A DNA stretch of 64,000 nt, taken from Blasia pusilla (taxonomy: Eukaryota). The stretch spans positions 18,662,001 to 18,726,000 of the forward strand of contig CM114271.1 in assembly GCA_050084515.1 (NCBI GenBank), written 5' to 3'. The translations under genes and the position numbers were made by a program. Below the pieces are notes generated by a model. The model saw only the letters and a program-made list of their open reading frames with translations, did no database searches and was not told the origin of the DNA. Below, piece after piece: positions 33,570 through 64,000 of this stretch (position 1 is the first letter of the stretch; each line of letters opens with the position of its first letter).

Positions 33570-33957
33570 AACGAGTGAGATTTCAAAATTTCTCTCCCTC
33601 CACTTCAGTAATTTTGCTCGTTGATTTTGCTCTGATTGTTGTTGCAGTAATCTTGAGTGGAAGTTCATAAACCTGTGAAGATCCAAATCGGACAACTTGC
33701 TGCAGATTAAATATGTGTTTTTCGAGGGGGGAAGAGAGAGTGGGGTGGTCGGATTGATGTTATGGTTGTTGGAGCCCTTCCATCATGTGCGATGCTCATT
33801 TTCTCATGGTCTACTTATCTCCATCACAACATACAATTCACGTTCAATATTCTGGATTCATTGCCCAAAGATAATGCATTTTTGAGTAACAGCTTCTTAG
33901 GGATACCAATGAGGTACGGTAGATAGTTTTAGTGTCGAGGAGAGTTTCTTGGTTGAT

Positions 33958-33975
33958 GCTCTCTCTCTCTCTCTA
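33958..33975 (+). repeat. (CT)n microsatellite
   Basis: CTCTCTCTCTCTCTCT run. Confidence 0.8.
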
Positions 33976-36900: not shown

Positions 36901-37962
36901 CTAGGTCGCCATGTTCTGCAGGCTTCAGTTCAAAAATCCAGTTGACTTTCCAGATTTCCAAGAGCCCCACCTCCAGCCCAAACTCATCTCACAAAGCTTA
37001 CGCATATCTAGGTACACGACAAGTAAGATGAGACAGAGGCAGACACGCGTTATCGCACAGGATCAAATTTCTTTCGCAGCGAATCCGTTGTTCCTGATCA
37101 GAGGAAGTCAGCGGGTGCTTGTTTGATCGCGCAGACACGGGACTCGGCCGTCGACGCAAGTGGAAGATTTCAAAATCTGCAGGTACACCCTGAATTTGCA
37201 CCGCGAAGGAAGTAACTAGTCGAAAAAGCTACAGTGATTCAAGCGAAGTTGACAATCCTCCGCCTTATCCGCATGATTCTCATGTCTGTCGCCAATCTAT
37301 GTGCAGAAAGGGGCGGGCTGAGCCTCGAGGTGTAGTCGATGGCGTCAAAATGGAATGCTGCTGCTCCAACCGTGCCACGTTAGCTGCGTTCGGTGATCGG
37401 CAATCTTAGACTTCGTTGGATTCTCCCCTAGGGATCAGGTTTCCAATCCTACCTTCTCCGTTATCACCAGGCTGCACATACGCATGATCTTTTGCTCGAG
37501 TCTGTTCCCCGAGGGAGCGCTGAAAGCATTTCTCGAACCCAGCTTCTTATATTATCGCAGTGTGTGCCTTCCTTGAGCGATTGGTCTTGATCTTGGGAAA
37601 GCTACCAGGCCGTCTATGAAAGTGGGACAGATGCTATTCACCCCAATTAAACAAATCTCCCCGAGCAGGTGAATTCCCTCTGGAGTCTGATCTGACCCCT
37701 CTTTGGAAGAATCGAAGGGTCTTTCCCTTTCCTGACATGTTAAAAAAACCGTCCATGGTTCTCCATCTACTGTCGCTAACCCCTAAACAGTGCGATCAAT
37801 GAGCAATTACGTTTGATTCTTGATACACAGTATTTTTATTCTGGGTGTCTAGTCTGCTACTCACTCCGATGCAGTTGGTGTGTAGTTGATCACTTGAGTC
37901 GGAGGAAAGGCATACGACGGAGCAAAATTCTGCGCACCTTGTGTGCTGATAAAACCCCTAAA

Positions 37963-44807: not shown

Positions 44808-46557
44808 TGTCGTGCGCGTACACATCGCTACACAACCCACATTGATCGCTCATCACATCTACACACCACACAACACCGATCTTCCCAAACATACGGGTAG
44901 ATCCACTCCTAAATGAAATGCACTCACGCATATACACCAAGATCCCATAACCAAAATCTGAGTAGTAAAAATGGCTCACCCGGCCCAAAAATCCACTCAT
45001 GAATCTACATCGGCATATCGAACCATATCCATCCTCTACTATGAGGGAATCTAGACGCTAGCACCCGAACTCCTCCACACCCACATACGTCTATGCAAGA
45101 GAGGTGATCCTAAGGCTCAACATGAGAAAGATGGCTTGAGAAAGCCATCTCTCTCACTCTTATACCCTTGAGAAGGGCCAAAAGGCTCTTACACCAAAAA
45201 TAGCCCTCCCTACGATAACCTGCGTGCACAGGTTATCAGGTGACCGTTGACTCGGTCAATGGGTCACCTGATGGACTAAGACAAAAATAGGGAAATTTCC
45301 ATAAACGATGTTTCCAATGCAACATACCTATCGCCAACCTCATCCAACATCTCAATATGAAGTTACACCCGAACAACCCGCTGACTCCCTATGTTGTCGA
45401 CGCAATAGAACTCTACGCACGTCAAAATAAGATGTGACAGTTGTCATGCGCATAGACATTGCTACCCAACCCACATTTCTGGTCACATCTACACACCACA
45501 CAACACCGGTCTTCCCAAACATAGGGATAGATCTACACATAAATGAAATACACTCACGCATATATACTAGGATCCCACAACCGTCCCCCTAGTTGGCAGT
45601 TGGATCCCCCTAGCTCCAAATAGCACACACATATCTACCTGACATGATCTACTATCCTATACATATAGCACAATCGTTGCCGTCATCCCGGAAACACTGC
45701 AACACCCCATCGTGTTGATCCCTTCGAAGAGATCTAGCTCTCGTGTACCCTGCTCCAAACATAGACTCGGCTCCACGCCTGCCTCACGAGCTTGTTTGCA
45801 ATCCATGCATCTCAAAGCTCATCCCCAACAACGATAAAGAAGCTCCGCACCATGGGAAGAGACACCTACCCTGGCATGTCTCTCCGTGGGATTATCCGCT
45901 ACGGGAATGTCCTCCGCATGTGTGCTCCTCTCCCCAAATCCTCTTGATCAGCTAACACCACCTGTGAATGTTGCTAACGTGGTCACCGTCTTCTCACATG
46001 GTCGACCACCACTACTCCCTGCAAATAACACCGGTAGATGGATCACCCGCCTATCACTTGATCGCCACTATGGCCGATAAGAAACCATCTCCTCCTAAAA
46101 ATCCTGAATAAAACCAAAAGGATATAACATTGTACTCCCTACCAACACATCATACGACTCTGCCAGTGTCATAATCGCTCGAGTGCGCACCATTGCACTA
46201 TCCAACTCATGCTCTGGCTGGAGTCTAACCACCAACTCCTGTCGAGTCATGTACAATATGGGTGATATGCCCCCAATAGAGGTATGTATCTGGAAGGGAC
46301 AATGCTCGATGTCGCCTTTCCGTAACCCCAACGCCAAACATGCCGCCTTCCCTAAAATCAAGGGCTGCGCTCCCTAATCAAGTAGCACGGCTGCGGTTGG
46401 TACACCGTACCTATGGGACTAAACAAGAAAAACACTCCTGCTCAATTATCCAAAAACACCACACATTGTGTGATCATGGCTTGCTCTATTGCTGGCCTAA
46501 CTGGCATATCTACCAATTAATGCCGCAACATACCATGACTCAATGGAGGATGTCCCG
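44808..46557 (-). mobile_element. Family-C element, 3' part only: split-repeat end, PPT, DNMT motif-I stub and protease; no RT, RNase H or integrase
   Basis: Y 44808-44952, X 44953-45439, GT spacer, Y' 45442-45582; ORF 46095-46361 is protease-like (GAQPLILGKAACLALG..CPFQIHTS..SYDVLVG); LDLFEGIN at ~45712-45737. Confidence 0.8.
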
Positions 46558-49500
46558 AGTGAGGGTATGCCGCTGAGTGCCGCACCCAATTCCTGAGTGC
46601 AGCACTGGCGGCACGGAACAGCTACAAAAGGCCCCATTTGTAGCCATTCCGTGCCGCCAATGCCGCACCGCACCGCTTGACCCGCACCACACATTAAGGA
46701 GAGTTAAGCATCGTCAGTACCAAGGGAGTACGACGTACTATTTGGAGGAGTTTTTTGCATGACCGAGTTGGGGTCAAGGTTTGCAGCTCCTGAGGAGCGA
46801 CCGACATTTATTCAGGTTACCCATTCTAGTCTTTTGTCTTGCAAGTGTTAGGGAATTCCGGGTATTGGGCATTTATTTGGGGATATTGGGTCGTGCAGAT
46901 GTTGAGAGCATCGTTGATGTATGGGTTTAGGGGACATAGACCTGTGTGGGATGTCCTGAGTTAAGGGTGTGTCATGTCGATGAGATGATAGGACAGTAGA
47001 AAATTTTCCGCACCACGCAGTTTGTTGCCGCACAACACACGTCTCACTGAGAGAGTGTAGATTGAGTGCCGCATGTTTAGTTGAGTGATTGATTGATTAC
47101 TCACGAGATTGAGATTGATCGTGTGAGAGGGGCACGAGGGTCATCACAGCGTCCTTTTAGGACTTTGAGAGGCAAGGTGGTGGACCTAAGAGTAGTTCTA
47201 GAGGGTTTACCCGGAGTGGTGCAAGGTTTCAAGAGTCTCCACGTGAGAGACCCCCTCGATCTCCTTCTATGGCATCCTTGCCATAGAAGAGTGTAGAGGA
47301 GTATGCTAGTGATCCACCGCACACATTGAGTGGTCCTACCCTTTGGGCGTACGAGATGGACGACCGGGATAGAGGACCGAGTAGGTTTCGGGTGTTATAG
47401 GCACTATAGAGCTACACAACTTCATTGTGGAGTTTAGGAGTTGGTGTGACTTACAGCGGGCTAGGAACTCTAGAGAGTTCAACCCGTTTACATCATGGAA
47501 TGGTATGTTCCAGCATTTAGAAGGGGCACCCATGGATAATTACCATGAGTTCTCCCACACATATGCCCAGGAGATTGAGGCATGGCGACTCTACTATGAC
47601 CCACACTACGTGTCATGGACTGAGCTGTTTCTCGATGAGGAGGAGGAGTCAAGAGAGGGTTCCTCCACCAGTGATGTTGGAGGAGGGGTAAGTCGCACTA
47701 GAGCAGTTGCATCATCCACTCGAGTTCGTGCCAAGTTCAACCCCGTGGTTGAGTTCTTTGTTGAGTTGCGGGCAAGCTACCAAGGGGTACGGATGGAGAA
47801 GTTACAGAGCATCCTCGACTTCCAGAGGCGCCCAGGTGAGGGTTTGCATGAGGCCTATACCCACTTGCATCAGTTAATTAACGTCACTCAGGGGGTGATA
47901 GAGGCTCAGGCTATCTAGTCATGGTACGCGATGCTGGACCGGATCCTGCGGACACGAGTGCGGGAGGCGGTGCTTCTTATGAACACCTCCCCTATGTTGA
48001 GAGATGTTTTTAGGACCGCTGAGAACATTGAGTGCAACATGGCGTAGGAGACCGTAGGCACCATGGGTTCTAGGCAAGAGCAGTCATGATTGCGTGCACC
48101 ACCAGTGCATCAATGTGGATTTTGAGATAGGTTAGTGGCACCAGGAGCTCAGGGAGGATACTGGGAGACCGTGCCACAGACACCTACGCCTTCATATACG
48201 ACTCAACAACAGCCGCCCATGATTACTTGTTGGTCATGTGGTGGAGTCCATCGTCAATGCGATTGCACTCGTCAAGGTCATGGGCGCGTGCCTCAACATG
48301 GAGGAGGAGATGGTGCTACACCATGACGTTATCAATGTGACTATTATCAGAGGTATGGTCACACACGGGCCATGTGTTTCAACTTGCACCCTAAGTTACT
48401 TTTGGACTGAGGGCCAGAGAGGGCACCATGGCAAGTTGCTGGTCCAGGTGGGCCTAGAGGTCGTGCACCAGGTGGTCCTGTTGGGGGACGAGGAGTTGGA
48501 TTCACCCGAGGGGGTGGTGGAGTTACCCATGTGAGAGATAGAGTCCCACCACCTAGATGCATTGAGGGAGACATTGGGCATAAGGCTGGGATGGCTGCTC
48601 AGATATAGCACCTATAACATCAGATTTCCACAATGGCATTGAGATTACCCAATGCCAGATCTGTGGCATCAACGTCTTATGGAGCTGCAGGAGATATGGA
48701 GGATCTTGGTTGGATGTACGGGGCTGCCCAGATGGAGGCCGCCGTAGTTGTTACGCATGGAGCAGCCGTAGATTTGGATCCACAGTGAGGGGAATCCAGG
48801 AAACAAACCAAGCTTCCTCAGTCCTTCACGTTATCTGAAGCGATGAGGACCCCATCGATCCTGATCAAAGTTCTCGAAGAGTTGGTGATGTTGTTAGTGT
48901 GGAGGCATGGAGGGCGATGGGAGAAGCGAGTATGACGACTCTTATTTCTCATGCTCACGAGGAGCATATGTTGAGCATGTTGTTGGGGGCGGCCACCGTT
49001 GTGTCCCGTGCTTCTTTATTTTCTGCTTCCGATGTTATGACGTTGAAAGGTACGCCCGCTGAGGTTTTCTGGCTGGCCCCTATACTCTGTGAGTGTGGAG
49101 TTGGAGTTCCTCCATCACGTTTAGAGGTGATTCTAGAGGAGGTGATGGAATGCCCTTGGAGCTCATGCTCGAGCTGTCCATGTCAGATTCATGGTAGGGT
49201 GTAGCTGTTAGGATGGCGGAGATGCCCGCTAGACCCGCAATAGAGCGTGCTATGGCTTCTCCTAGTGTTGTTTTGTTGGATAACCAGGGAGAGGTCTTCT
49301 AGTTGGTGAGTCCATGAGGTAGAGCTTTTAGTCCGTAGTGCGTCTTGTTGGAATCAGGAGCGCAACTCTTGATGTTGGGAAAGCGTTTTTTGGAGGATTG
49401 GGCTTGACGAGAGCCGATGTGGAGCGTTGTCCATTCCGGATACATACATCCTTGGGTGGAGCAAGTACCACAAAATATATCATCCCGCAGGAGGTTGTGG

Positions 49501-52500
49501 TGAGGATTCGCCCCAGACACCCTGCTGATGAGTCCGTGGTGCAAGCCAAGGCGATAGTGACCGATGTAGAGTCTTACGACATCTTGGTTGGTGGAGCAAT
49601 GTTGCATCCGATAGGGTTTTCCCTGGATTACTGGGGGAGCCAACGTCCTACAGACCAGGATGGCACTTAGGTGATGGGCGCCTTAGCTCATTCTCCATCC
49701 GATTCACAAGTTAGAGATTGGTGATCGAGCGCTTCACTTCACCATATGGCGATGCCTCTCTGTTTTCTCGGAGAGATGGCGACCTTGGCATGGAGCGAAT
49801 ATTTGCACCAAAGCGTGATGGGTTAGAGGAACCCGAGAGTGCTATACTTATGCCCATCACTTGTCCTAGTGATTTGATTGAGGACATGTCCATGCAGGAT
49901 TACGCATGGGATACTCTTGTTCCTAACATTGCTATGAAGAGTTGAGTGTCCCTACCATGGCGTTGGACTTGCATAGGGCGATGGAGCGAGATAGAGCGTT
50001 GGGTTAGGAGGAAGAGAGTGCTATACTTATGCCCTTGGATACCACATTGTGTGGCGCATCTCAGATCGAGGAGGGTGGAGTGTTGGATCTCTTTGGAGGA
50101 TCAAGCACTAGAGCAACTATTTTCGCATGGAACAATACTTGTATGTAGAGATTGGTGATGTTAAGGCGCTTCACTTCACCAGAGTTAGCCTCTGATATTT
50201 TTCAACGCTTAGCCATTGGGCATGTTGGACTTGGATCAGGTAGGGCGCATGGAGCGAGATATTTGCACCAAAGCGTGATGGGTTAGAGGAACCCGAGAGT
50301 GCTATACTTATGCCCTTGGATACCATACCCATTGTGTGGCGCATCTCAGATCGAGGAGGGTATTCGAGTGTTGGATCTCTTTGGAGGGATCAGCACTAGA
50401 TTAGCAGCTATTTTGCATGCAGGATTACGCATGGAACAATACTTGTATGTAGAGATTGGTGATGTTGCGAGGCGCGCTTCACTTCACCATATGGCGTAGT
50501 TATGCCTCTGTTTTCTCGACTTGTTGTCTACGTCCGTTGTCCAAGGATACCAGAGTTCCCTACCATGGGATATTTCATTGCTGGGGACGTTGGACTTGGA
50601 TCAGGTAGGGCGCATGGAGCGAGATATTTGCACCAAAGCGTGATGGGTTAGAGGAACCCGAGAGTGCTATACTTATGCCCTTGGATACCATACCCATTGT
50701 GTGGCGCATCTCAGATCGAGGAGGGTATTCGAGTGTTGGATCTCTTTGGAGGGATCAGCACTAGATTAGCAGCTATTTTGCATGCAGGATTACGCATGGA
50801 ACAATACTTGTATGTAGAGATTGGTGATGTTGCGAGGCACGCTTCACTTCACCATATGGCGTAGTTATGCCTCTGTTTTCTCGACTTGTTGTCTACGTCC
50901 GTTGTCCAAGGATACCAGAGTTCCCTACCATGGGATATTTCATTGTTGGGGACGTTGGACTTGGATCGGGTAGGGCCCATAGATGTGGTCTTTGCTGGTT
51001 GGCCATGTTAAGACAAATCTAGTGCTTGACGAGGTAGCCAGTTAGCTCACACTTAGTTGAGGTTGTTTTGGGAGATGATGCGGATTTTGCGACACTTGCA
51101 AGAGCATCAGTCTCGTTCTCCAACATACATTCTGGAGAATCTACCAATTTTGGGCGATTCAAGGTCCCGCGTGGTGACGAGTGCATATAAGGTGCGTGCA
51201 TGGACCGGCCCGGCAATGTTTTTGGATGCGGCAAGTGTAGGTTTCTAGAGCACACTGCCCGCATCTTTGGTGGACCAACTTGGTCCCACGTGAGGTTTTG
51301 CGGAGGGCGTATGCGAGAGTGGTGCGCCCCTCCGATTTGTTGATGGATTCTATTTTGGATCCAAGTCGTCGATCACACGTAGTGAGGCACGATGATCAAC
51401 CGCCGATGACTATGGTCAACAGGGATGGCATGCCATGGGCAACCTTTCCCACATTGGTGAGTTTTCCCGCTTCCTATGCATTCAAGGAGGCCGGACCTGG
51501 CTTGGTTTGGGATGACGAGTCATAGCGGTTGGTGGAGCCCAACGCCGATGAGCGAAAGCACGCGATGGGATTTCCCACATGAGTGACGGCAGTACCATCC
51601 CTCTCAGAGGCATCACAATGTCATGTCTTGGGTCAGGCAATGGACCTGAATTGCTTGACATGGATTTTCAGCATAGGAGTGGCATGGCAAGGTCGACTGA
51701 GGATGCGACAAATTACATCTGTTGCTTTGGTGAGCCCCATGCCTACCAAGACGGTTGAGGCAGTGGATGGGGGCGAGACCCGAGGAGATCAACACACCAG
51801 AGATGATCGAGAGAGATACCCTTGGACTTCTTGGGATGTTTTGGAGGTACGCCAAGAGATGGTAGCCATAGCATTGAACGTGGTTTTGGGTACTGCATAT
51901 GGAGATCCAATTTTGCAATTGGCTGCACGGGAGTAGTCAAGTTTTTTTGTCCGAGATGGGGTTGCACCACCTGCACCCGCACCGGAGAGTTCTACCATAG
52001 TCACGATGGAGACTTGGGAGCCAGATGTGGGACCTAAGTTGACAGGAGGAGAGCGGCGTCGGATACATCGGTTTGTGAGGAGTTATGGGAGGTGTTTTGC
52101 ATTTATCATGCATGATTTGGGTACGCTGAAGGGTCCAGGGATCCGCATTGAGTTGTCAAGTGACACACCGATCTTCTGACAACCCTACAAGTACAATGAC
52201 ATGGAGAGGGCTTTGATTCAGAGTAGGAGCCAAGACTTGGTTGGAGCAAGACTAGTGGAGATGTCCCATGGAGAGTATGCATATGCCATTGTCATGCCCG
52301 CCAAGAAGGATATGCATGACAACTGGACGGATAGGCGGATGTGTGGAGATTACCAACCTATCAATTGGCACACGAAGTCCAATGGATATGTCATGCCCAC
52401 CCCTGAGGAGATCTTTGATGCAATTGGGCATGCAAAGGTCTTCAATTCATTGAATTTGCGAGTCAGATACCATGAGCTACCTATCAGATTGGAGGACAAG

Positions 52501-54197
52501 CGAAGAGCGGCATTTTGGGGCATCGATCATCACAAAAAGGATTGCTTGTACCAATGGCGGCTCTTACCATTCGGGTTAAGGAATGCCTTGGCTGAGTTTA
52601 AGTGGTTCATGGATAGGATCTTGGCAGGTCTGGATTTTGCTAGGTGTTATATTGATGACATCGTAGTCTTGAGCGCCATGGTTGAGGAGCATGAGCGACA
52701 TCTAGAGGAGGTGTTTCGACGATTGTAGTTATATGGGCTGAAGCTACTTCCAAGCAAGTGCAAGTTCTTCTATGACTAGATTGAGTACTTCGATCATACG
52801 ATACATCCAGGAGGCCTTGGTGTGCAGCAGACGAAGGTAGAGGCTATTTCACGCATTCCTTCCACGCCCTATACATGTAAGTAGAGTTCGTGCATTCATG
52901 GGATTGGCGAACTTCTATCGATGGTACGTCAAGGGTTTCAGTTTGATTGCAAAGTCACTAACCTTGCTGACCAAGGTGGATCAAGAGTGGCATTGGGGGG
53001 ATGAGTAGGAGAGAGCATTTCAACTGCTCAAGGATAAATTGGTGTCTGCACCCATATTGAGGAGACCAATCAGGGGACGTCCTTTCCAATTGCATACTGA
53101 TTGGAGCATGTTGGGGCTTGGAGCCGTGCTCATCCAACATGACGATGATGGTAGAGAGTTTGTGGTGGCTTACGCTAGTGGCTCGAACAACGCTGTTGAG
53201 GCGAAATATAGCTCATATGAGGATGAGTACTTGGTTGCGGTGTGGGCTGTCGCACATTACAAGTGTTATTTATTTGGCAACCCCTTTACCATCATTATTG
53301 ATCATCAGCGACTTAAGTGGTTGATGGGTCCGAAAAGCTTACAGGGAAGTTTGCAAGGTGGGCTCTTTTATTGCAGGAGTATGACTTCCGGGTCGTGCAT
53401 AGACCTAGAACACTCAACCAGGATGTAGATAGTTTGAGCCGTAACCCATGCTTGAGTTAGTAAGATGCAATTGGAGCTCGTTGGCATGGTGAGAGCAATG
53501 AGGAGTTGGTGCCAGGATGGCACCCGTCAGCCTATTTGGGCTTGTTGGCTATGGAGTGCCAGATTGTTGAGACTTCGATGGCGAGGTATGATGGAGAGGC
53601 CGGTGAGGAGACGACAGGTGGCTGAGACATTCACGACGATGGAGTGGTCTTGGAATACCTGCGTACTGGCAGCGTCGCGAGCACAATGGGTGCTAGAGAG
53701 CAGGATCGGATCCTACAACAAGCCAGAAAGTTTTGGTGGGAGGGGATAGATGTGTTGCGAGTTTGGGAGGATGGTAGAGAGCGTGTAGTGCCTCATCCTT
53801 TGCAGAGAGCACGTTTGGTGCATCATGCCCATAAGGAGTTGGGTCATTTTAGAATGAAGCGGACGTACAGATTGCTCTGGATACAGTATTAGTGGTGAAG
53901 CATGCAAACTGACGTTCAACAATTTGTTGCCAAGTGTATGGTGTGTAATCGAGTCCGAGCATCGTTCAATGCTCCGACTCCACAATTGCATCCACTTCCG
54001 ATTATGGGTTTAGGTTATAGATGGAGTTTGGATTTTGCAGGACCTTTGCCTTTGACGGAGCGCTATAGTTGTTATGTGTTTGTGATGGTTGAGCACTTCT
54101 CAAAGTGGATAGAGTTGAACTTTGATGATCATGATGTATGGATGCGAGCATGTTCTCACAGGGCTGAGTTGTTTCGGAGAGTGATGCCCATGGCGTT
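46558..54197 (+). mobile_element. Family-B element B3 (plus strand), 5'-truncated; gag-PR-DNMT-RT-RH-INT pseudogene; interrupted by A3
   Basis: Reverse complement of B1/B2; EFRSWCD, CWSCGGVH, IRVLDLFGGIST, FAGWPC, YILENLP, LGQAMD, CYIDDIVVL, LHTDWSMLGLGA, WSLDFAGP. Confidence 0.9.
50246..50975 (+). repeat. 365-bp tandem duplication (two near-identical units) covering DNMT motifs I-III of B3
   Basis: ORFs 50299 and 50664 are near-identical and 365 bp apart; partial scrambled copies lie upstream at 49712-50245. Confidence 0.9.
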
Positions 54198-54779
54198 TGT
54201 CGTGCAAATCCACATCGTCATACACATACATCGATGACATACCATACTCACATACATACATAACATAGATGAGAGCATCCACAAACACAAGAGTACCACA
54301 ACTGAAATCCGTGTAAGACCTACTATCATAAAATACGTATAGAATCACATACAATCAAGCCAAACCCACTCCACGATGGGAGAATCCAGGTCGAAGCTTG
54401 CGGGAACCACCATAGCCAAGAGCTCTACTCACTACCAAGGCTAACTCCCAACGTAATAGGCTCAACTCAAATAACTAATTGTTCTTTGAGTGCACTCCAC
54501 ACTATATCCTCCAACCTAAGAGCGGGCCCTACTGGAAAAGTCACCCTCAACTGAGTAACCCCCAACCCTATGTATGAAACCGCATCTCTACCTAGACACT
54601 ATGGCCCTACATAAGGAATGGCCTCTACTAGCACACTATACTCTACGACATAATCCGTATGGTCATGACAATTGTCGTGCGAATCCACATCGTCATACAA
54701 CATACATCGCTGACATACCATACTCACATACATACATAACATAGACGAGAGCATCCACAAACACAAGTGTACCACAACT
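54198..54779 (-). repeat. A3 3' terminal block: Y (54198-54303) + X (54303-54670) + AT + Y' (54673-54779)
   Basis: Same layout as A1 and A2. Confidence 0.93.
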
Positions 54780-54952
54780 CGCCCCCCTAACTGGCGGTTA
54801 GGTCCCTCTAACTCCCAGGTAGCCCTATACATCTACTACATGCTAAACACCTTCTTGGATGCACGAATCAGAAGGCCGGGTGCTAGGTTGCCCAATCGTT
54901 AGTCGCCCATCTGTAATCCATATCATGCAAAGATCAAGTCATCTACCTCTCC

Positions 54953-57900
54953 TAAGTACATCAAGGACAAACCCACCTTCCAGTAGGAACAACATCCATA
55001 TGTGGAGTCAAACACATCATGTGCCAACCCCTAGAACACCGATCATACACCAACATACGGGCTGCGTTACCAACAAACCCACACAACATGCACCTCAAGC
55101 TAGCATGTATCATGGCTAATCTTGGGTCAATAGTACCATCCAAATTTGGAAGATGACATGGCGCACAATTACGCACATGGTCCTTCCAAACAACTCCATC
55201 ATGACCCTCTAACATGAGAACTCCAGAAGCTAACACCTCTCGCACTCGTAAAATAGTGCGGCATGCTGTCACATCCAACATTTTCGGTGCAATCTCTTGC
55301 AAATAGACATAGTCCCCCACATGGAACCTACGAATCGATGGTCGATAACCTCCACCCCGAATGGTTGCATACCACAACGTATCCCTGTGTTGAGCAATGG
55401 CAAGATTCTAAAAGGCTGTTGGCATAACTCTCCAAAAGAGCTCTGCCCGCTGAGAACACACTCTCATCCATATCTCTGGGTCATCAAGGTTCACCACCTC
55501 ACTAGACTCCCGACAAATTGCTGCTAGAAAGTCTGGATCTCGGCCGTATAAAAGAAAATAAGGTGAGAAGGAAGCCAAGGATGCTTGGCGATTGAACCTA
55601 TACCCCATGGTTAACCATGGAAACTGAATATCCCAGTCTCCAAGATGCCCCTTTTGTAGGCCATACTTGCGCAATGCCCTCTTCACCATCTGAACCACAT
55701 GCTCAGCCAAACCATCCGCCTCTGGATGATCTCGAGACGTGGTCCGATGATCAATCAACGCCTTGTCACACAAGACCTGAAACTCACCCTGAAACTCTAT
55801 ACTCTGGTCGGTCAACACTTCCGCTAGTGCACCAAAATGACTAAGCACTCTATCAAGAAATGCATACGCCGTTCCCTCACCTGCCTTGTCAGGTAATGCC
55901 ACCAACTCAATCCACTTGGAGAAGTGCTCCACCATCACCAACACATATTGATGATGTCGTACAGTCAACGGTGACAATCCCGCAAAGTCCACATTCCAAC
56001 AGTAACCCAACCCCATAATAGGCAAGGGGTGTAACAGTGGTGTAGGGGCATTGAATGATGCCCTCACCCGGTCACAAACCATACAACCTAACACCAACTG
56101 CTGCACTTGAGTATGCATGCCACGCCACCAATATTGACCAAGGAGTAAGCTATACGTACGCTTTACCCCAAAATATGCCGACTCCTCATGGGCATGTCGC
56201 ACAATGCGCTCTCTCTAAGCCAAATGCGGCACTACTCGTACTCTACCATTCTCCCACACATGGAGAATATGTGTTCCCTCCAATCGATACCTCTTAGCAG
56301 GTTGAAGAACACGGTCTGGCTCCTTGGCACTCATTATGCCTGGCACCCTACTAGTCTGTAGGAACTCCAACACCAACGCATCATCATGAATATCACGCTG
56401 ATCCGTACCACCATCTCCAACCTTAGGATCTGAAGGTTGGCCATCTACCCTCTGACTAGAGTAAGATGTCATATGGTCCTCCATACTAGAGTCCACCCCT
56501 AACCAACATAAAAAGACGGATGCATGCCAACCTGGCACCATCTCCTCATCAACCTCGCCATGCCATGTAGCCCCAGTTGCATCCTCTTGGCTAGTACATG
56601 GGTTCCTACTCAACCCATCAGCATCAAGGTTGGCAACTCCAGGTCTATGTACCATCTGGAAGTCATACTCCTGTAAGATAAAGCCCACCGTGCAAGCTTC
56701 CCTGTAAGCTTGTCAGACTCCATCAACCACTTGAGCGGCTAGTGATCAGTAACAAGGGTAAACTGTGTGCCAAACAAGTAACACCTAAAGTGTGCCACAG
56801 CCCACACTACTGCCAAGCACTCTCCCTCATATGAATTGTAGCGCGACTCCGCTGCATTACTCGAACGACTTGCATAGGCCACCACAAACTCCATGTGATC
56901 ATCATCATGTTGTGTCAACACCGCTCCAAGTCCCAACCTACTCCAATCAGTGTGTAATTGAAATGGGCGCCCTCTGATAGGTCTCCTCAAGATAGGCGCC
57001 ATTACCAACTGGGCCTTGAGCTCCACAAAAGCTCTCTCCTGATCATCTCTCCAGTGCCACTCCTGATCTGATTTCAGCAATTGATTCAAAGGCTTTGCCA
57101 TTGCACTAAATCCCTTCACATACCTCCGATAGTAGTTCGCTAATCCCATGAATGCCCGAACTCTACTCACATCTACCGGATGAGGAATAAGTGTAATAGC
57201 CTCCACCTTTGCTTGCTGAACTCCCAAACCACCTGGATAGATCACATGACCCAAGTACTCTACATCCTCATGGAAGAACTTACACTTTCCAAGATGCAAA
57301 CATAGACCATGAGCTTTCAACCGGTCAAACACAATCTGCAAATGTACCTGATGCTCCTCCACCGTGTTACTGAACACCAAGATATCATCAATGTAACACC
57401 AAACAAAATCCAACCCTGCTAGGATCCTGTCCATCACTCTCTGAAACTTGGCAGGTGCATTCTTCAACCCAAAAGGTAAGAATTTCCACTAGTACAAAAA
57501 ATCCTTACCATGAGAGTTGACACCCCAAAATGTTGTCTTGGCCTTGTCACTCTCTCGAATTGGAAACTGATGGTATCTTGCCCAAAGATCCAAAGTACAA
57601 AAAATCTTTGCCTGTCCCACCACATCAAAGATCTCCTCAGGTATAGGCATGGCATACCTATCGGCCTTGGTCTGCCGATTGATAGGACGGTAATCTCCAC
57701 ACATCCGCCTATCCGTGTAGTTGCCATGCACATCCTTTTTAGCAAGCATGACAGTGGCTGATGCATACTCTCCATGTGACAACTCCACTAATCCAGCCTC
57801 CAAAAGGTCCAACGTCCTACTCTGAATCAGGTCCCTTTCCATATCACTATATCGGTAGGGACAACGGAAGATTGGCGAATCACTAGCCAAATCAATCCGT

Positions 57901-60900
57901 ATATCGGGTCCAACCAAAGCACCCAACTCCTTCATGCTAAAGGAAAAACAACTCCTATAAGCACGTAGGAATTGTGTCAAGCGTCGTTTCTCACCTCCCG
58001 TAAGCTTGGTCCCAAGTAATGGCTCCCAAGTCTCCTCCACTGGCACACTAGAGGGAGAGGATGCACCATTGGCTGCTACGCAATCCCCTCACAAGATGGT
58101 ACACCCTTAGCTACACCATCATCTGAGCAAATAACTCCTCCACCAGCATGAGCAACCAACTCCACATGCCCATCCATTACATACCATTTACTCCAAGGAT
58201 GCAAAATACTACTCTCCTCGCCCCCAGCCAATGCCTCTACCGTCCCAATAGCCATCGAGCTCATCACAAGGGGTGGAAGACCCACAGACATAGTCCGAAG
58301 TCGACGCTGCTCGGCCATACCAAGACTCAAAATCCAAGTTAAACAATTCAAGTCCATGGCCTGATCCAACACATGACGTCGTGAAGCCTCAGAAATGGAA
58401 GCAACCGCTGTCACACAAGTAGCAAATCCCATCGCACGCTCTCTCTCATCAGCGTTAAGCTCCACCAAATGTCGCACATGAGAATCCCATACAAGCTCGA
58501 GACCACCTTCCCTGTAGGCATGTGACGAAAAAACTCACAAATGTGGGTAGTGCCATCCTAGGCTGGCCCACACGGTTCACCACTGCCATGGGTGACCGAT
58601 CAATAACCCTCACCACCTGAGAAAGTCGCCCAGGATCCAAGATACTATACACAATAAGGCAAGGATCCCGCTGCACTGCATCATATGCTCAACGTAGAAC
58701 CTCCCTAGGCAAAAAGTTTGTCCACCACAAGCGTGGACGATGTGCACGCGAGCCAACTTGCACTTCATCCAACAACACTGCTGGTCCAATCCAAGACCGC
58801 ACCTCATGAACACTCGCCATCATCCGGGTCCAAGTATCACCCAACAATGGAACATTCTCCAAAATGTAAGTTGGAGCACGTGCTTGATGAACTTGAAGAT
58901 ATCGTAACACCCGTAATATCTCCCAAAACAATCGAGATCTAGGGTCATGTTATCCCTCACCACAACCAGCATGTGTATGACCCTGACATGGCCATCCAAC
59001 AATCACCAAATCCACAAGACCAACCCTCTCAAGGTCCTGCGCCCCCAACAATGCAATGTGTGATGGCAAAGCACGCTGGTACCCATGAATAGCTGATGGC
59101 GGCAACAACTCAGGATATCTCTGCACCAACTGACCAATATGTTGGGATGAGACTCTCTAGGCCGTCTCATCTCGCTCCACATACACGTATCTCTGCACAA
59201 GAATACCGGTTTGCAACACTGCAGCCAAACTAGCGCTAATCCCACCAAAGAGATCTAACACACAAATGCCCTCCGACGGATATTGCCATACAATGGGTGT
59301 AGTATCCAAAGGGGATAACCCAACTGGACCAGAAGTAGCAGTCCGCCGTGGAGCCTCCTCTTCCTCGTGAGATATAACAGCCTCATACCAAGCCTCCTGC
59401 ACTAGGCGATCACCCTCGTGCCGTAGTGCACCGCCTGAACTCCAAAGTGGCACATCCAACCATAAGGATACCACTGTCACAAAACTAGGGACCTCCTCTA
59501 CCTCCTCATGCACAGGAGAATCCATAGCAGAAAGGTTACCCTCCAAAAAGTCTCCTGGCCAAGTGACTACTCCACAAAAACTAGCCACAGATGCTAACAC
59601 TGTTGGGGAAGTCCCTCCTGGTCGAGCCCCATAAATAAATCTCACAAGAACCTGGCTCATACGTCCATCCCCGAACTGCCAACCAGGTCTATAAGATGTT
59701 GTCTCAGTCCAGTAGTCCATCTGAAAACCCATCGGGTACAATACTGCTCCTCCAACTAGTACATCTTACGACTCGGCTGATGTGACCACTAGCAGTACTC
59801 CCAACCGGGAGCTATAAGTCGCATGATTTGGTCTCAACTGTACAGACAACTTCTCCCATGTCATGAATTGAGACCTATCATTGGCTCCTCCAAGTGATGT
59901 TTGAATCTGGAATGGGCAAGGCTCAAGCTCTGACCTCCGAATACCCAAACCAATACATGCCGCCTTTCCCAACATCAAAGGTTGGGCACCAGAGTCTAAC
60001 AAGACTCTATACATACATATACCAAGTGTAAGCCTCTCACAATCAATGGCTGGCCGGGCTGGAAATGCATCCATCTTCGCCGCTGCTGCCTGCCAAGTAG
60101 CACTGGTACTCAATGCTACATCTGACATAGAGGGTTGCCCCACCGCAACACCCTCAACCACCTCAGCACATGTAGCAGTAACATCCCCACGTTCACACAA
60201 CGTGGCTGCTAGCTAAAATATAGGACCTAAGTCAACTCCTAAAGCCATCAGCTCAATGGCTAAAAACAATGGGGATCCCAACACTAAAGTTTCCATCCGT
60301 AATATTGCACTAGATGGTGCATCCGTGTCTACTACACACGATGTAGATGCCTCAGTCCCCACTGTAGGCTCAATAGGATGCGTAGGAACTATGGATGGAG
60401 TCCTAAGCACCTCAAACAACAAGAATGACTGGGGAAGCCTAGCCTGCCTCCCAACCTCACCCCTCAGTGGGTCCAACTCCACAGTAGCACCACGTGGCTC
60501 TGACGCTGGAGTGGCTCCTCTCGAATCGCACTGGTGATGCCTCAACTTTTGTCTTTGCACTCGCAATATAAGAGCGATCATCCCCTCCATAAGAGGTGGA
60601 AGCCCTTGCTCCCAAATCTGCTCTATGCTGGATACCAGCCATAGTAGCCAACTTCTGCTCCAACTGCTCAATCTTGGCAGCCATAGCTGACTCTGTCGTA
60701 GTGGTAGGGGTAGCCACCGTAGGCTCTCCAACCACTGGTCCACCTCTACCACCCCTACCACTTCTACCATCTCGGCCTCTCGAAGCTACTCCACCATGGC
60801 CGCAGCCTGATCTCAACTCTGGATGAAGATCAAAGCAACGCTCTTGAGGATGACCTTGTCTCCCGCAATGATCACACTAAGTTGAGACCGACTGAGGCCC

Positions 60901-62099
60901 ATCCTCCAAAGTCCGTCTCCCATCCTCTTGGGGACAAAACCTCCTAACATGATCACCTCCACATGTCCAACATGATTGTCCTTGCTGCGGGGCAGCAAAT
61001 GAAGGCAATGGTCTCTGCGCACGTGTCCCTCTAGGACCTAACTGAGGTTGTGTGTACCCTCGACGACTCCCACTACTACTACCACCACCACTACTCCGAG
61101 ATTGTGAGGTGGAATGCTGAACACGAGAAGTAGTAGTTGTATCCCTACTGAATGCGGATGTCACCCCTCTCTCCTTCACCATGTTAAGCTCAATCTTCTC
61201 AGATAGAGCAAACACATGGGTCAATGTGGGTGAATCATCACTCATAAGAGTAGGATCACATACCCTACGGCGCAACTCTCTGTCCAAGATCCCATACCAA
61301 AACTGGACTGCCTGAGCCTTTGTCAACCCTGGGTAACTGAAATCAAGCGTTGTATACGAGTGTATGCCTCACGAAGACTCTCACCAATCTTTCCCTCAAA
61401 TTCCTGAAGACTCCTCAACTTCTCTATCTTCACTCCCTGATAGTTCTTCTTCAACCTCTTGAAGAACTCTGCAAGTGGGCTGAACGATGGTGGGGCACTA
61501 GTACCTCCACTAGTACCCCCACTGGTAGCTCCATGGGTGCTTCCACTAGTACCCCCACTCCGGCTCGTACTCGTACCACTCAACGTCGGGCTGGCTGGCA
61601 TAGTAGGATCACTACTACGAATACCACCATGGGTGATAGACACATAGCCTGGAGACCAATATTGTCTCCACGCCTCAATCTCAGTAACATGGTCCTTCCT
61701 AAACTCATGGTAATCATCCATGGGTGGTCCCTCCAAGTGCTGAAACAACCCCTTCCAAGCCAAGAAGGGTGTAAACAACATGGCGTTCCGCAACATCTGC
61801 ATATCACACCACGTATCAAACTCCTGCATGAAGTCCTCCAACTCGATGGTGCCTATTGCACACGAGTATCATCGTGGGCCCTTCATGGCCCCATATATCC
61901 CGTTCATATCCGAAATCAATGGAGCTACAATACTTGATAACAACGTAGAAGACTCGGTGTTTGGAACACCCTCGTCCTCCTCTTCATCAACCGTCGGAAG
62001 TGGAAAAGGTAGCCGATACCTCAATCCACTCCGTGTAAAACCACCACTGTCCGCACCACGGTCCCCAACCAGACCACCAGACAGCTCCGTGATGACCAA
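54953..62099 (-). pseudogene. A3 gag-pol with DNMT (~58330-59270) and PHD (~54953-55095)
   Basis: EGICVLDLFGGISASLAAVLQTGILVQRYVYVERD; DLVIVGWPCQG (GWPCQ at 58983-58997); YILENVP; SRAHRPRLWWTN; ERERAMGF; WCYIDDILVFS; integrase HHCC and DDE remnants. Confidence 0.92.
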
Positions 62100-63596
62100 C
62101 GCCGATGCCGCACCACCACTAAGTAACCAAGTGACATGGATGTCGCTGTACTATTCTAGCTCTACTTGCTATGGATGTAGGCAACCTAACCTATCATCAC
62201 CATAAGAAGCCTCCCACGGTCTGCTGGTCATCACTCCATCCTCACTAATGGTAGTACACAGGAGTAACACTACTCTGGAAATCAGCGTCAACCCTAACAA
62301 TGGGCGTGCAAGCAAGAAGCAACGATGGAGGGGATCCAAACACAGGAAGTCCAAAGACAACCCTCCAATCTCAAATGGAAATCAAGGTAACACAATCCAC
62401 AAAACGTGGCGCCCCTTGAATCCACAAAACCCACCACATAATTCTAACGTAATAGCTACTCCGTCGCGGGTCGATGACGTGCTAGTCGGACTCGCAACAC
62501 TTGAAAATATCACCTGCATAGAGAGGCTACACTGTACTATGCGCTAGAGGTCCATCAACCAAAAACCTAAGATGCATAAAGCGCGTAACACATCTCCAAA
62601 CAACACCAAATAAGCTACACCAGTGTGTACACTGGCATAGTTAAGAACTCAGCAGTTGAGCATTTTCCAGGCAGAATAGCCCAAAGATGGGTGACCAGTT
62701 ATGCAACACTCAAATCACAAATCCTGCAAAAATTGCCTCACACCCAAGCAAGCAAGCTTGCTTGCTCCTTGCTCCTTACTCCGCCTCTCACGCCCACTCG
62801 CCCCGAGCTACCACGAGTTGCCTCGAAACGCCGAGAAATGCTCGAGACATGCCCCGTTCGCCACGCTTCGCCATGCTTTGCTATGCAGAGAGGCCCAACC
62901 AGGGCACCCCCAATGGGATAGGCATCTCCAATAACGGACGAATCACCAACCAACCAGCCCCTCTGGTCTGCTGTCCACCATAGCCAGACCTTGAGCTAGT
63001 CCGCAAAATTTTGATCAGCAATTACTCCACAAATCCTCAACCAAAATTGAATTTTTTTCAACCAAAATTCAATTGACTACCATAGCTATCTCTCCATAAA
63101 AAGTCAGCTACAACCGAGCTTTGTACTCTGAGCTAAAAATCAGAGAAACTTGCTGTCCATACACCTCTAGAATCGCAAATCCGACAGCGCTTCCGCCCAG
63201 TTTCATGCACGTAGAAATCCGCAACGCTCCACACACTCAAGCAGATAGCTTCACATGAGATCACAATACAAGTAGCAACAGGAACCTCTCACCCGATCTG
63301 GATGAATTTCAACAGAGCTTCCGCACTCCAAGCTCTCCACATCAGAAAACCGTCGAACACAAACCAAAATCTTCAATCCTTGAGAACTTCCAACTCCCTT
63401 GACAAAATCCGGCGATCTAAAGCGCGTTGGAAAGCTCTCAGCAAGTTTCTTCTTTCCCAACCAACCACGCACCAGATTCCTACCTCCAACATAGGCCACA
63501 AGCCACGAACATCCACGGCTGAGTACACAATCAGCCCTAACCAAATCCTACTGATCCACAATCGAAGCTACCATCGATCTACTCCAGTTCTTTGAG

Positions 63597-63962
63597 TGAA
63601 ATCCGTGAAAGACCTACTGTCATGAAACACGTAGAGAATCACATACAATCGAGCCAAACCCACTCCACGATGGGAGAATCTAGGTTGAAGCTTACGGGAA
63701 ACACCATAGCCAAGAGCTCTACTCACTACCAAGGCTAACTCCCAACGCAACAGGCTCAACTCAAAGAACTAAATGTTCTTTGGGTGCATTCCACTATATC
63801 CTCCAACCTAAGAGCGGGCCCTACTGGGAAAGTCAGCCCCAACTGAGTAACCCCCAACCCTATGTATGAAACCGCATCTCTACCTATCCACTACGGTCCT
63901 ACATAAGGTATGGCCTCTACTAGCACACTATACTCTACGACATAATCTGTATGGTCATGACA
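63597..63962 (-). repeat. A3 5' terminal repeat x, preceded on plus by the PBS-position sequence AGTTCTTTGAG (63586-63596)
   Basis: Repeat of 54303-54670; complementary ACTCAAAGAACT at 63759-63770. Confidence 0.92.
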
Positions 63963-64000
63963 CGTTTGAGAACTTGGCGATTACGCAACATTGGGATACG
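63963..64000 (+). mobile_element. Continuation of B3 integrase C-terminal region
   Basis: Reads (A)FENLAITQHWDT, matching FENLAIAQHRDT of the other copies. Confidence 0.88.

Follow-up and report, generated by a model that had tools for sequence, protein, structure and literature searches.

A predicted DNMT3-type cytosine methyltransferase domain within the Pol region of decayed Ty3/gypsy-like retroelements in Blasia pusilla

Hosts defend themselves against transposons chiefly by methylating cytosines, and for this reason a transposon with a de novo methyltransferase of its own presents a paradox. The paradox is raised by a stretch of 64,000 nucleotides from Blasia pusilla (GenBank assembly GCA_050084515.1, contig CM114271.1, positions 18,662,001 to 18,726,000 of the forward strand; here called the window), in which an original prediction, made from the letters alone, placed a DNMT3-like cytosine-5 methyltransferase (C5-MTase) inside pol, between protease (PR) and reverse transcriptase (RT). 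This article considers what the predicted enzyme is, to what kind of element it belongs, and what it might do there. The interval 58,331-59,270 is very likely the decayed C5-MTase domain of a dead Ty3/gypsy-like copy, A3, whose Pol is organized as gag-PR-[DNMT3-type MTase]-RT-RNase H-DDE integrase-PHD, and for which a role in active relatives can be proposed.

The MTase of copy A3 is encoded on the minus strand (Table 1), where a single frame from 59,765 to 58,535, continuous with the upstream PR frame, contains motifs I (VLDLFGGIS), II (YVYVERD), IV (DLVIVGWPCQG), VI (ILENVP), and VIII (SRAHRPRLWWTN). Motif IX (ERERAMGF) sits in a different frame (58,076-58,534), with one frameshift near 58,529-58,535 (tblastn: frame -3, then -1) and another at ~58,076-58,088, ahead of RT; in-frame stops occur at 59,157-59,159, 58,950-58,952, and 58,686-58,688. 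The window contains five copies of the domain, belonging to family A (copies A1, A2, and A3) and family B (copies B2 and B3), which share their position and frame within the element and are 66-93% identical in nucleotides. The predicted motif strings and coordinates were confirmed, and the canonical, non-permuted order of C5-MTase motifs is common to the five copies: motifs I and X are located at 6,722 and 5,832 in A1, at 29,135 and 28,247 in A2, and at 18,731 and 17,840 in B2 (minus strand in each case), and at 50,739 and 51,631 on the plus strand in B3. Motif X is LGQAMD in A1, A2, B2, and B3, and LDQAMD in A3. The PCQ of motif IV is intact in A3 only, the other four copies carrying PCE, PCR, PCK, or PC followed by a stop. 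In B3, the motifs have decayed with their order kept (ILENLP, SRAHCPHLWWTN, ADERKHAMGF, and LGQAMD), and motif I is repeated at 50,374 via a 365-bp tandem duplication (50,217-50,881).

The DNA_methylase family of Pfam (PF00145) is absent from every single open reading frame (ORF) fragment (86-258 aa), even at E<=1, because a stop splits the matching stretch, which comprises motifs IV-VI. A match had been expected of a frame-corrected reading, and when A3 was translated with X at each of its three in-frame stops, PF00145 was indeed obtained at E 5.6e-8, with 33.0 bits vs a curated cut-off of 22; it also exceeds the cut-off in six of the eight relatives scanned (29-45 bits). With the C-terminal 253-aa fragment of A1 as query, 28 longer proteins were found (E 7e-89 to 3e-11), PF00145 being present in 25 of these. 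When a family profile was compared with PDB sequences, the top ranks were taken by DNMT3A (8.8e-21), DNMT3C (2.8e-18), and DNMT3B (7.6e-18; 77-66 bits for the three), below which came DRM (3e-14 to 1.5e-12, 56-50 bits), M.HhaI (1.8e-7, 33 bits), and DNMT2 (~1e-6, 31 bits); DNMT1 was not found among the 54 PDB sequences at E<=0.01. The alignment of the profile to DNMT3A is colinear over motifs I-VIII and then IX-X (chain residues 14-181 and 245-285), and the predicted parallel to the motif VIII region of DNMT3 (IDAKEV-SAAHRARYFWGNL) can be seen in alignments with DNMT3. The AF2 model of an intact relative, P0003, has a pLDDT of 80.8, with the PR-MTase linker at low confidence, and all 33 Foldseek matches listed for this model (ranks 1-49) are DNMT3A, DNMT3B, or DNMT3C, with TM values of 0.79-0.84 on catalytic-domain chains.

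In host DNMT3 proteins, the catalytic domain is preceded by two readers, PWWP and ADD; neither was found by Pfam between PR and MTase in A3 or the relatives. The best 150 relatives in an exhaustive search are all members of the retroelement clade, and two word-based profile searches likewise returned clade members, with no named DNMT3 or DRM among the matches listed. By Pfam, profile rank, colinearity, modeled fold, and domain order, the original prediction stands in its central claim, and the A3 stretch can be described as a predicted DNMT3-type, non-permuted C5-MTase domain within Pol, where "DNMT3-type" denotes rank among solved structures and not position in a tree.

Table 1. Positions in the window of the components of copy A3 and of the other methyltransferase-bearing copies (repeats A1, A2, B1, and B2 of copy A3 are distinct from the copies so named).
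Feature	Position	Strand	Basis or remark
Copy A3, DNMT3-type C5-MTase core, motifs I to X (predicted)	58,331-59,270	minus	Pfam, tblastn, motif reading
Copy A3, PR-to-RT interval	58,076-59,765	minus	Linker of ~150 aa, poorly conserved, plus MTase and C-terminal tail
Copy A3, gag region, two CCHC-type zinc knuckles	60,457-61,868	minus	Split over several frames; zf-CCHC found in relatives
Copy A3, protease region	59,766-60,212	minus	Aligned to relatives with Asp_protease_2 (P0024, P0044); no Pfam match on the fragment itself
Copy A3, RT and RNase H, two ORF pieces	56,739-58,088	minus	RVT_1 1.4e-22, RT_RNaseH_2 7e-32
Copy A3, DDE integrase	55,408-56,214	minus	Integrase_H2C2 and rve
Copy A3, integrase C-terminal extension	54,961-55,407	minus	PHD finger ~54,964-55,092, 27.4 bits vs cut-off 24
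Copy A3, repeat A1 (5' terminal repeat)	63,597-63,962	minus	Sense start TGTCATGACC
Copy A3, 3' repeat block	54,198-54,778	minus	Sense order B1 (54,778-54,672), A2 (54,670-54,303), B2 (54,302-54,198)
Copy A3, target-site duplication CGTT	54,194-54,197; second copy 63,963-63,966		
Copy A1, DNMT domain	5,797-6,797	minus	Element 1,663-11,485, nested inside B1; 5 stops, frameshift ~6,330
Copy A2, DNMT domain	28,212-29,165	minus	Element 24,078-33,570; 6 stops, several frameshifts
Copy B2, DNMT domain	17,805-18,790	minus	Element 13,434-23,649; 3 stops, frameshifts
Copy B3, DNMT domain	50,721-51,666	plus	Element ~46,634-54,117; 6 stops, frameshift ~51,243
Truncated PR-linker fragment	45,882-46,786		Degenerate motif I near 45,734

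The element that constitutes copy A3 spans 54,198-63,962, and the domain order gag-PR-DNMT-RT-RNaseH-INT is common to the five copies. Its PHD extension is in frame with the integrase, with one stop between them, and in copy B2 a single ORF (14,408-15,307) encodes both the last part of rve and the PHD finger. The PHD finger is also present in relatives of both architectures, PR-DNMT-RT and RNase H-DNMT-INT, and the nearest solved PHDs are those of DPF3, KDM5B, KAT6A, KDM5A, AIRE, ATXR5, PHF21A, and UHRF1. In keeping with Ty3/gypsy elements, a gag with CCHC knuckles, aspartic protease, RT, RNase H, and DDE integrase occur in that order, the element ends are TG..CA, and the target-site duplication (TSD) is short; 4-bp TSDs flank three of three A copies (AACG/AACG, CGTT/CGTT, and TGGA/TGGG, where the last pair differs at one base), and the empty insertion site is visible in B2.

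The terminal repeats depart from this pattern. The layout of two simple identical LTRs with PBS and PPT was not found in A3: the right end is repeat B2 and not A, a purine-rich run (54,779-54,818) lies directly 5' of repeat B1 and not of A2, and no TGG-type PBS was found directly after repeat A1. The repeats are split direct repeats of the form A1-...-B1-A2-B2, which were seen in copies A1, A2, A3, and B2 and also in metagenome loci L044 and L036, two of the six loci with a long-spaced repeat pair among the 15 examined; the direct-repeat scan was empty for L051 and L020, the contigs of which may stop short of the element ends. Canonical LTR readings, in which the LTR is taken to be A, A+B, or B+A, are each contradicted by one observation. 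Membership of the DIRS/PAT/Ngaro group was also rejected, the split direct repeats being the only feature in common; Pfam found no tyrosine recombinase in the window copies or relatives, where rve and Integrase_H2C2 were found instead, and TSDs of 4 bp are present, whereas members of that group insert with no duplication of the target. How replication yields split repeats together with target duplications of the integrase type is unexplained and deserves a specialist's attention.

The window holds a nest of DNMT-bearing gypsy-like copies, often inserted into one another, and includes a further family B copy, B1, whose DNMT part lies beyond the left edge. A low-GC stretch at 33.6-45.9 kb has short ORFs only, without obvious meaning. 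Copy A2, with A repeats that are 97.8% alike, is the youngest. All five DNMT copies in the window are pseudogenes, each domain having between three and six stops plus frameshifts, and C>T and G>A dominate their decay, together making up 187 of 357 polarised changes in A1 and 168 of 291 in A3; no window copy is intact, and therefore none here can be active. The dN/dS between A1 and A3 is 1.2. Between families A and B, DNMT has a dN/dS of 0.165-0.294 and RT-RH one of 0.13-0.16, values that are rough because dS is saturated (1.4-2.7) and that for DNMT, as the prediction required, are not near 1; the uncorrected pN/pS of DNMT is 0.39-0.48 in frame vs 0.80-0.91 and 1.44-1.57 in two shifted frames. 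By these codon comparisons, the DNMT domain was kept under purifying selection during the divergence of A and B. The PC and ENV motifs have not been lost: both persist in the copies with the least decay and in relatives that are intact.

Outside the window, some relatives are intact and others nearly so. At least 504 clusters of relatives at 50% identity are present in public data; their named hosts among the matches listed are liverworts and Sphagnum only, and the only organism name carried by 20 environmental clusters is Sphagnum (S. jensenii and S. troendelagicum). Persistence across three diverged families in a land-plant-like genome had been proposed; the land-plant setting agrees with these hosts, and the number of DNMT families in the window is reduced to two. 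In Marchantia, the DNMT domain is found within single annotated polyproteins together with RT and RNase H, the 2,163 codons that encode gag-PR-DNMT-RT-RH-INT on metagenome contig L026 include 2 stops, and independent contigs have open frames of 1,847 and 2,074 aa that contain the domain. There was no Klebsormidium protein among the matches listed (28, 34, and the best 120 of 209), proteins of a kind that a word-based search may miss. The stretch was found in no sequencing run recorded as RNA. Contigs of 330-700 nt from three runs, X16-X18, which are RNA only by guess, extend over most of the element including DNMT with ~5-7% differences and a depth of 4-13; DNA carry-over is possible, and they have no bearing on transcription. 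Joints 54,778/63,597 in these contigs are the A|B junction aligned with the other repeat copies.

DNMT retrotransposons have been described from a charophyte alga (KnitGypsy-Dnmt3 in Klebsormidium nitens) and from the dinoflagellate Symbiodinium, with Ka/Ks < 0.2 (de Mendoza et al., 2018; PMC5890265), in agreement with the prediction. A text search of PMC5890265 gave no mention of Marchantia or liverworts, and no paper describing such elements in Marchantia, other liverworts, or mosses was found in a literature search, the scope of which stopped short of subscription journals and supplements; the supplements of PMC5890265 and PMC12344493 may list bryophyte sequences. DNMT-bearing retroelements are known from a green alga, and land plants have apparently gone undiscussed so far.

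What an element would gain from such an enzyme can be framed as follows. In active relatives, the MTase would be translated within Gag-Pol, enter the particle, and be either freed by the protease or left on RT. Its action would then fall on the element's own DNA, that is, on new cDNA or on the fresh insertion and its borders; among the functional options this commands the largest single share of our confidence, a share that stays somewhat below an even chance. The idea that a packaged DNMT would methylate cDNA or the insertion site was put forward in the 2018 paper and repeated in the original prediction. The choice of cDNA as the substrate, in preference to host DNA or RNA, is pure inference on our part. 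The PHD finger of the integrase would steer insertion to chromatin with an unmodified histone H3 tail, a preference that it would share with the matched PHD proteins. Through PHD steering and self-methylation, the element would thus land in silent, repeat-rich chromatin and mark itself as such, and a silent landing may lower the cost to the host and let the lineage persist.

Several other explanations have to be weighed against self-methylation. The most radical, that the domain is a fragment of a host DNMT3 gene broken by transposons, or an assembly chimera, has a negligible probability: bryophytes do have host DNMT3 genes according to the text of PMC6453930, but the recurrence of the domain in one position and frame across five copies and two families is enough to rule this reading out, and it is further opposed by the Marchantia polyproteins, the open frames on independent contigs, and the TSDs that bracket the whole element. 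It is also improbable, if far less so, that the domain is a pseudo-enzyme that Pol has retained for a structural role or for binding DNA or SAM. Motif IV in the wider clade is often not PC (among 174 domains, EC occurs in 76, PC in 64, and no match in 19, and SC, DC, and AC also occur), which leaves the chemistry of those relatives open, and 74 of the 174 carry ENT or ENA as motif VI. The catalytic Cys of motif IV, however, is present without exception in 30 diverse clade members, and in the bryophyte clade, which includes the window copies, PCQ and ENV are kept, as is the motif VIII R.R; CG methylation in yeast is also described for a related enzyme, SymbioDIRS-Dnmt3 (text of PMC5890265).

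An active enzyme might alternatively work in trans, on host loci, on competing transposons, or on RNA (genomic RNA or the tRNA primer) as DNMT2 does. RNA methylation by a LINE-borne DNMT and effects on the host genome in Symbiodinium are both raised in the discussion of PMC5890265, DNMT2 is among the profile matches (E ~1e-6), and the present data do not fix the substrate. We nevertheless regard trans action as rather unlikely, in that DNMT3A/B/C rank about 40 bits above DNMT2 in the profile comparison with the PDB, the domain model superposes on DNA-bound DNMT3 structures, and fusion within Pol beside RT would favor the particle or pre-integration complex. Methylation of the element's own DNA remains our preferred function. 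There is also a broader reading, to which we give a minor chance: that the copies in the window belong to the bryophyte part of an integrase-bearing clade that is old, very large, and active to this day and that carries a chromatin kit (a DNMT3-type MTase and a histone-tail-reading PHD finger), that the MTase moved once between the PR-DNMT-RT and RNase H-DNMT-INT arrangements, and that the B|A joint of the split repeats represents both termini joined by two bases, i.e., DIRS-like end regeneration combined with integrase insertion.

If this broader reading were true, land plants would harbor self-methylating, self-targeting retroelements, and the enzyme of these could supply a share of the de novo methylation of peat mosses and liverworts. 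Of the precedents, one has been handled experimentally (dinoflagellate) and one is descriptive (charophyte alga); with many copies in liverwort and Sphagnum genomes, the question moves to Marchantia, where genetics, methylomes, transformation, and some nearly intact relatives are to be had. The questions for this plant concern methylation of the element's own cDNA, PHD-guided insertion, and the share of the element's DNMT3 in the host methylome. There is also a warning for annotation, as many bryophyte gene models labeled "DNA (cytosine-5)-methyltransferase" or "hypothetical" are Pol fragments and not host genes.

Among known systems, the closest likeness is to KnitGypsy-Dnmt3, as far as the text and a figure legend of PMC5890265 describe it and not on the basis of the alga's sequence: both have an intron-less, non-rearranged Dnmt3-type domain inside a Gypsy-type Pol ORF, retained key residues with purifying selection (Ka/Ks < 0.2 there; 0.17-0.29 here), a DIRS-like repeat arrangement together with Gypsy domains (Fig. 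4c legend there; A...B-A-B here), and a streptophyte host, the hosts here, unlike the alga, being land plants (liverworts and Sphagnum). Vertebrate DNMT3A, DNMT3B, and DNMT3C (2qrv, 5yx2, 6kda, and 8tci) are the best profile and fold match, with colinear motifs I-X, similar motif VIII and IX strings, and a VIII-IX region that is likewise short, though spanning ~88 profile positions here vs ~63 residues in DNMT3A; they differ from the element's domain in that identity is only ~20-22% and in that the latter has no adjoining PWWP or ADD and is embedded in a retroelement polyprotein. Plant DRM2 (4onj and 7l4c), a related plant de novo MTase, belongs to the second-best profile group; DRM is circularly permuted whereas the element's domain is not, and the match covers profile positions 145-274 only (I to ~VI), which in DRM are located C-terminally in the chain.

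Other retroelements with a captured C5-MTase are SymbioDIRS-Dnmt3 (PMC5890265) and the EpiLTRs (bioRxiv 10.64898/2026.05.21.726589), as described in the text of each source. SymbioDIRS has a tyrosine recombinase, whereas the window elements use a DDE integrase. EpiLTRs similarly combine an MTase with a chromatin reader, a chromodomain in their case and a PHD finger here; their DNMT, however, is reported as sister to DNMT4, lies at the 3' end of pol, and is accompanied by an adenine MTase, in contrast to the DNMT3-type domain between PR and RT described here. The A1-...-B1-A2-B2 repeats, in which the internal ones follow the coding region, recall PAT/Ngaro-type elements as portrayed in the text of PMC4157794, from which the present elements are set apart by a DDE integrase, TG..CA ends, 4-bp TSDs, and the lack of a tyrosine recombinase.

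Copy A3, one of the decayed Ty3/gypsy-like retroelement copies of the window, carries a C5 methyltransferase (DNMT) domain in frame in Pol, between protease (PR) and RT, and this domain is DNMT3-type, a term that denotes a ranking against solved structures and not a phylogenetic placement. The layout of the copy, taken in sense order from stop-to-stop ORFs at 54-62 kb, is listed in the table with the other features. Motifs I, II, IV, VI, and VIII lie in one frame (59,765-58,535) that three stop codons interrupt, and motifs IX and X lie past a shift of frame near 58,530. When all six frames were scanned for the motifs, an ordered series was recovered at four further window sites, with the motifs of copy B3 decayed but their order kept. 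These four series have the coordinates, and the five single-frame motif strings of copy A3 the exact wording, of the original prediction of a DNMT3-like domain embedded in pol in five copies; its observation is confirmed, and its interpretation is supported. The N-terminal part of the copy B3 domain also holds a 365-bp tandem duplication (99% alike) that gives it two copies of motif I.

Coordinates of the retroelement copies and their features (window positions)
Feature	Position	Strand	Basis or remark
Copy A1, family A	1,663-11,485	minus	self-comparison
Copy A2, family A	24,078-33,570	minus	self-comparison
Copy A3, family A	54,198-63,962	minus	self-comparison
Copy B1, family B	1-1,662 + 11,486 to about 13,434		self-comparison; split by copy A1
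Copy B2, family B	13,434-23,649		self-comparison
Copy B3, family B	about 46,634-54,117	plus	self-comparison
PR-linker fragment of further, more diverged copy	45,882-46,786 (45,734-46,786 with motif I)	minus	
gag with zinc knuckles, copy A3	61,868-60,457	minus	stop-to-stop ORFs
Protease region, copy A3	60,212-59,766	minus	stop-to-stop ORFs
DNMT stretch, copy A3	59,765-58,076	minus	stop-to-stop ORFs
RT + RNase H, copy A3	58,088-56,739	minus	stop-to-stop ORFs
DDE integrase, copy A3	56,214-55,408	minus	stop-to-stop ORFs
C-terminal piece with PHD finger, copy A3	55,407-54,961	minus	stop-to-stop ORFs
PHD finger, copy A3	54,964-55,092		after integrase
ORF with PHD finger, copy B2	14,408-15,307		after integrase
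Tandem duplication, DNMT domain of copy B3	50,217-50,881		
Repeats, copy A2	24,078-24,660 and 33,202-33,570		
Repeats, copy B2	13,434-14,207 and 23,160-23,649		
Target duplication, copy A1	1,659-1,662 / 11,486-11,489		TGGA/TGGG, G/A mismatch
Target duplication, copy A2	24,074-24,077 / 33,571-33,574		AACG/AACG, perfect
Target duplication, copy A3	54,194-54,197 / 63,963-63,966		CGTT/CGTT, perfect

In the self-comparison by which copies were delimited, the three members of family A are 90-93% alike and families A and B show 66-71% nucleotide likeness. Every window copy is dead, and all are fossils: the DNMT domain has five stops in copy A1, six in A2, three in A3, three in B2, and six in B3, and at least one frame change in each. 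The A repeats within one element are 91.8% (copy A1), 97.8% (copy A2), and 92.7% (copy A3) alike. Most post-insertion changes are C>T or G>A, at 187 of 357 polarised single-copy changes in copy A1 and 168 of 291 in copy A3, and they occur alike in CG, CHG, and CHH contexts, as expected of heavily methylated repeats. Elements A1-A3 in the window further display strong strand asymmetry (sense strand G 31%, C 18%, T 29%, A 22%) and a CpG observed/expected ratio of 0.55-0.72. The family is extremely repeated in the organism of one DNA sequencing run (X1), 204,393 contigs of which match the 9.8-kb copy A3 at 90% likeness or more; the window copy has A where others in that run have G, and T where others have C. 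The truncated PR-linker fragment has a degenerate motif I (ELDLFEGIN) and ends in low-GC sequence, and its PR and linker are 30-48% identical to Marchantia proteins over matched pieces. Between the element nests, 33,571-45,880 has lower G+C (0.39-0.49) and short ORFs only, with no recognisable coding signal.

Single unbroken fragments of 86-258 aa were blank in the Pfam DNA_methylase search on which the original prediction had staked itself, even at E<=1, because a stop cuts the part of the model that matches (motifs IV-VI in the DNMT family), but copy A3 with X at stops passed the cut-off of 22 bits with 33.0 (E 5.6e-8). A 253-aa fragment of copy A1 matches 28 proteins longer than itself, at E 7e-89 to 3e-11. 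PF00145 is present in 25 of the 28, and the hosts named among the 28 are Marchantia polymorpha (13), Calypogeia fissa (2), and Sphagnum (2). Six of eight of these relatives, scanned afresh, exceeded the PF00145 cut-off at 29-45 bits, and two relative proteins (P0011 and P0016) have RT and RNase H within the same protein as the DNMT domain.

When a profile of 14 family sequences was searched against all PDB chains, DNMT3A ranked highest (E 8.8e-21, 77 bits), followed by DNMT3C (2.8e-18), DNMT3B (7.6e-18), plant DRM (3e-14 to 1.5e-12), M.HhaI (1.8e-7), and DNMT2 (about 1e-6), with no DNMT1 among the 54 PDB sequences at E<=0.01. The plant DRM match is confined to the block from motif I to about VI, whereas the profile is colinear with residues 14-181 (motifs I-VIII) and 245-285 (IX-X) of the DNMT3A chain, and the domain is therefore not permuted. 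An AlphaFold2 model of an intact relative 69% identical to copy A3 (P0003; mean pLDDT 80.8, 308 residues at 90 or above) was compared with solved structures by Foldseek, in which all 33 rows listed (ranks 1-49) were DNMT3A, 3B, or 3C, with TM 0.79-0.84 against catalytic-domain chains.

Selection was assessed on unrepaired sequences, with the codons of each copy paired via tblastn to Marchantia protein P0011. Between families A and B, dN/dS was 0.165-0.294 for DNMT at saturated dS (1.4-2.7), and 0.13-0.16 for RT-RNase H at dS 1.4-2.4, with one pair too saturated to compute. As a control without distance correction, pN/pS for DNMT and RT-RNase H, respectively, was 0.39-0.48 and 0.27-0.32 in the true frame, 0.80-0.91 and 1.1-1.2 in frame +1, and 1.44-1.57 and 1.2-1.5 in frame +2. 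The DNMT domain was therefore constrained while the lineages were active, somewhat more weakly than RT. Between copies A1 and A3, dN/dS was 1.2 (DNMT) and 0.64 (RT-RNase H), which is what post-insertion decay predicts.

Searched exhaustively with a profile, 1.84 billion representatives gave 13,958 matches at E<=1e-3, of which 2,739 reach 1e-10 and 504 reach 1e-30; each of the best 150 scored at least 253 bits, many being polyproteins of 1,000-3,456 aa, and Sphagnum was the sole organism name on 20 clusters looked up. Hosts named across all searches were the liverworts M. polymorpha, M. paleacea, Riccia sorocarpa, and C. fissa, and S. fallax, S. troendelagicum, S. tenellum, and S. jensenii, with no Klebsormidium among the matches listed. 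Two Pol layouts occur, PR-DNMT-RT in the window and bryophytes and RT-RNase H-DNMT-INT-PHD in most environmental members. In a quick, unrooted FastTree of 174 domains (54 rows without layout type), they are separated by a single branch (SH-like support 99), with PR-DNMT-RT in all 26 typed rows of a 54-row clade and RT-RNase H-DNMT-INT-PHD in all 94 typed rows of a 120-row clade; so clean a split suggests one relocation of the DNMT domain within Pol. The Cys of motif IV is kept in every one of 30 diverse family members and was found by pattern in 155 of the 174 domains. The residue before it is Glu (EC-Q) in 76 of the 174 domains and Pro (PC-Q) in 64; EC-Q, which keeps the Cys, is an unusual form of a catalytic loop that otherwise reads PC-Q almost universally. 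Among 56 metagenome loci with relatives, 27 are at least 6 kb and most of those are decayed, but L026 (gag-PR-DNMT-RT-RH-INT) is nearly intact with two stops in 2,163 codons, and L050 (1,847 aa) and L051 (2,074 aa, PF00145 not passed) have uninterrupted RT-RH-DNMT-INT-PHD frames; the clade therefore has members that are active or were so until recently.

Instead of plain LTRs, copies A1, A2, A3, and B2 have split direct repeats at their ends, with sense order A1-[coding]-B1-A2-B2 (block labels distinct from those of the copies). A repeat scan of 15 metagenome loci of at least 9 kb found a long-spaced pair in six, two of which (L044 and L036) have this layout. In family A the A repeat measures 369 bp and the B repeat 107 bp; in family B they measure about 516 and 129 bp. 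At the internal joint B1|A2, both termini (..CGACA, TGTCATG..) meet across a two-base spacer. A run of purines is found 5' of repeat B1 and not of A2, no TGG-type primer site directly follows repeat A1, and none of the replication schemes tried accounts for this combination of features. All three family A copies have TG..CA ends flanked by 4-bp target duplications, and copy A1 lies inside copy B1, its empty site readable in copy B2 near 20,425-20,433; family A insertions are integrase-type and nested in sister elements.

The DNMT domain was constrained during the life of lineages that inserted by integrase, often into each other. A PHD finger is borne by both clade architectures (relatives P0036, P0049, P0052, L050, and L051), and the solved PHDs nearest to this integrase-side finger are those of DPF3, KDM5B, KAT6A, KDM5A, AIRE, ATXR5, PHF21A, and UHRF1, most of which bind the H3 tail in its unmodified form. 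Active relatives may produce the enzyme with Gag-Pol; it would travel alongside RT and integrase and then methylate either newly made cDNA or a fresh insertion, and the PHD finger could bias insertion towards chromatin without H3K4 methylation; the element would thus hide in, and reinforce, silent chromatin. This account, which in essence follows the hypothesis discussed in de Mendoza 2018 (PMC5890265), is the likeliest of the functional options but tentative as a whole, its chances falling somewhat short of even. Action of the enzyme in trans or on RNA is unlikely by comparison, and a non-catalytic role for the domain is more improbable again.

Gypsy-DNMT3 elements of 'streptophytes' are already known from passages of PMC5890265, and passages of PMC12344493 and of a 2026 preprint (bioRxiv 10.64898/2026.05.21.726589) cite them as streptophyte. 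The literature searched, whose supplements and figures may list them, yielded no description of DNMT-bearing retrotransposons in liverworts or mosses, and public databases label the relative proteins as hypothetical protein or 'DNA (cytosine-5-)-methyltransferase'; the window elements are therefore a further case of a known kind. Of interest to specialists are the clade's size, its two Pol layouts, and the combination of split repeats with target duplications. Chromoviruses have a chromodomain at the post-integrase place where the window elements have a PHD finger, and PHD fingers borne by retrotransposons have been called widespread (PMC6673714). The Klebsormidium element, with DIRS-like repeats and Gypsy domains according to the legend of Fig. 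4c (de Mendoza 2018, PMC5890265), fits the anatomy of the window elements. PAT and Ngaro elements, as described in passages of PMC4157794, follow the same A1-B1-A2-B2 logic but use a tyrosine recombinase, whereas the window elements encode a DDE integrase.
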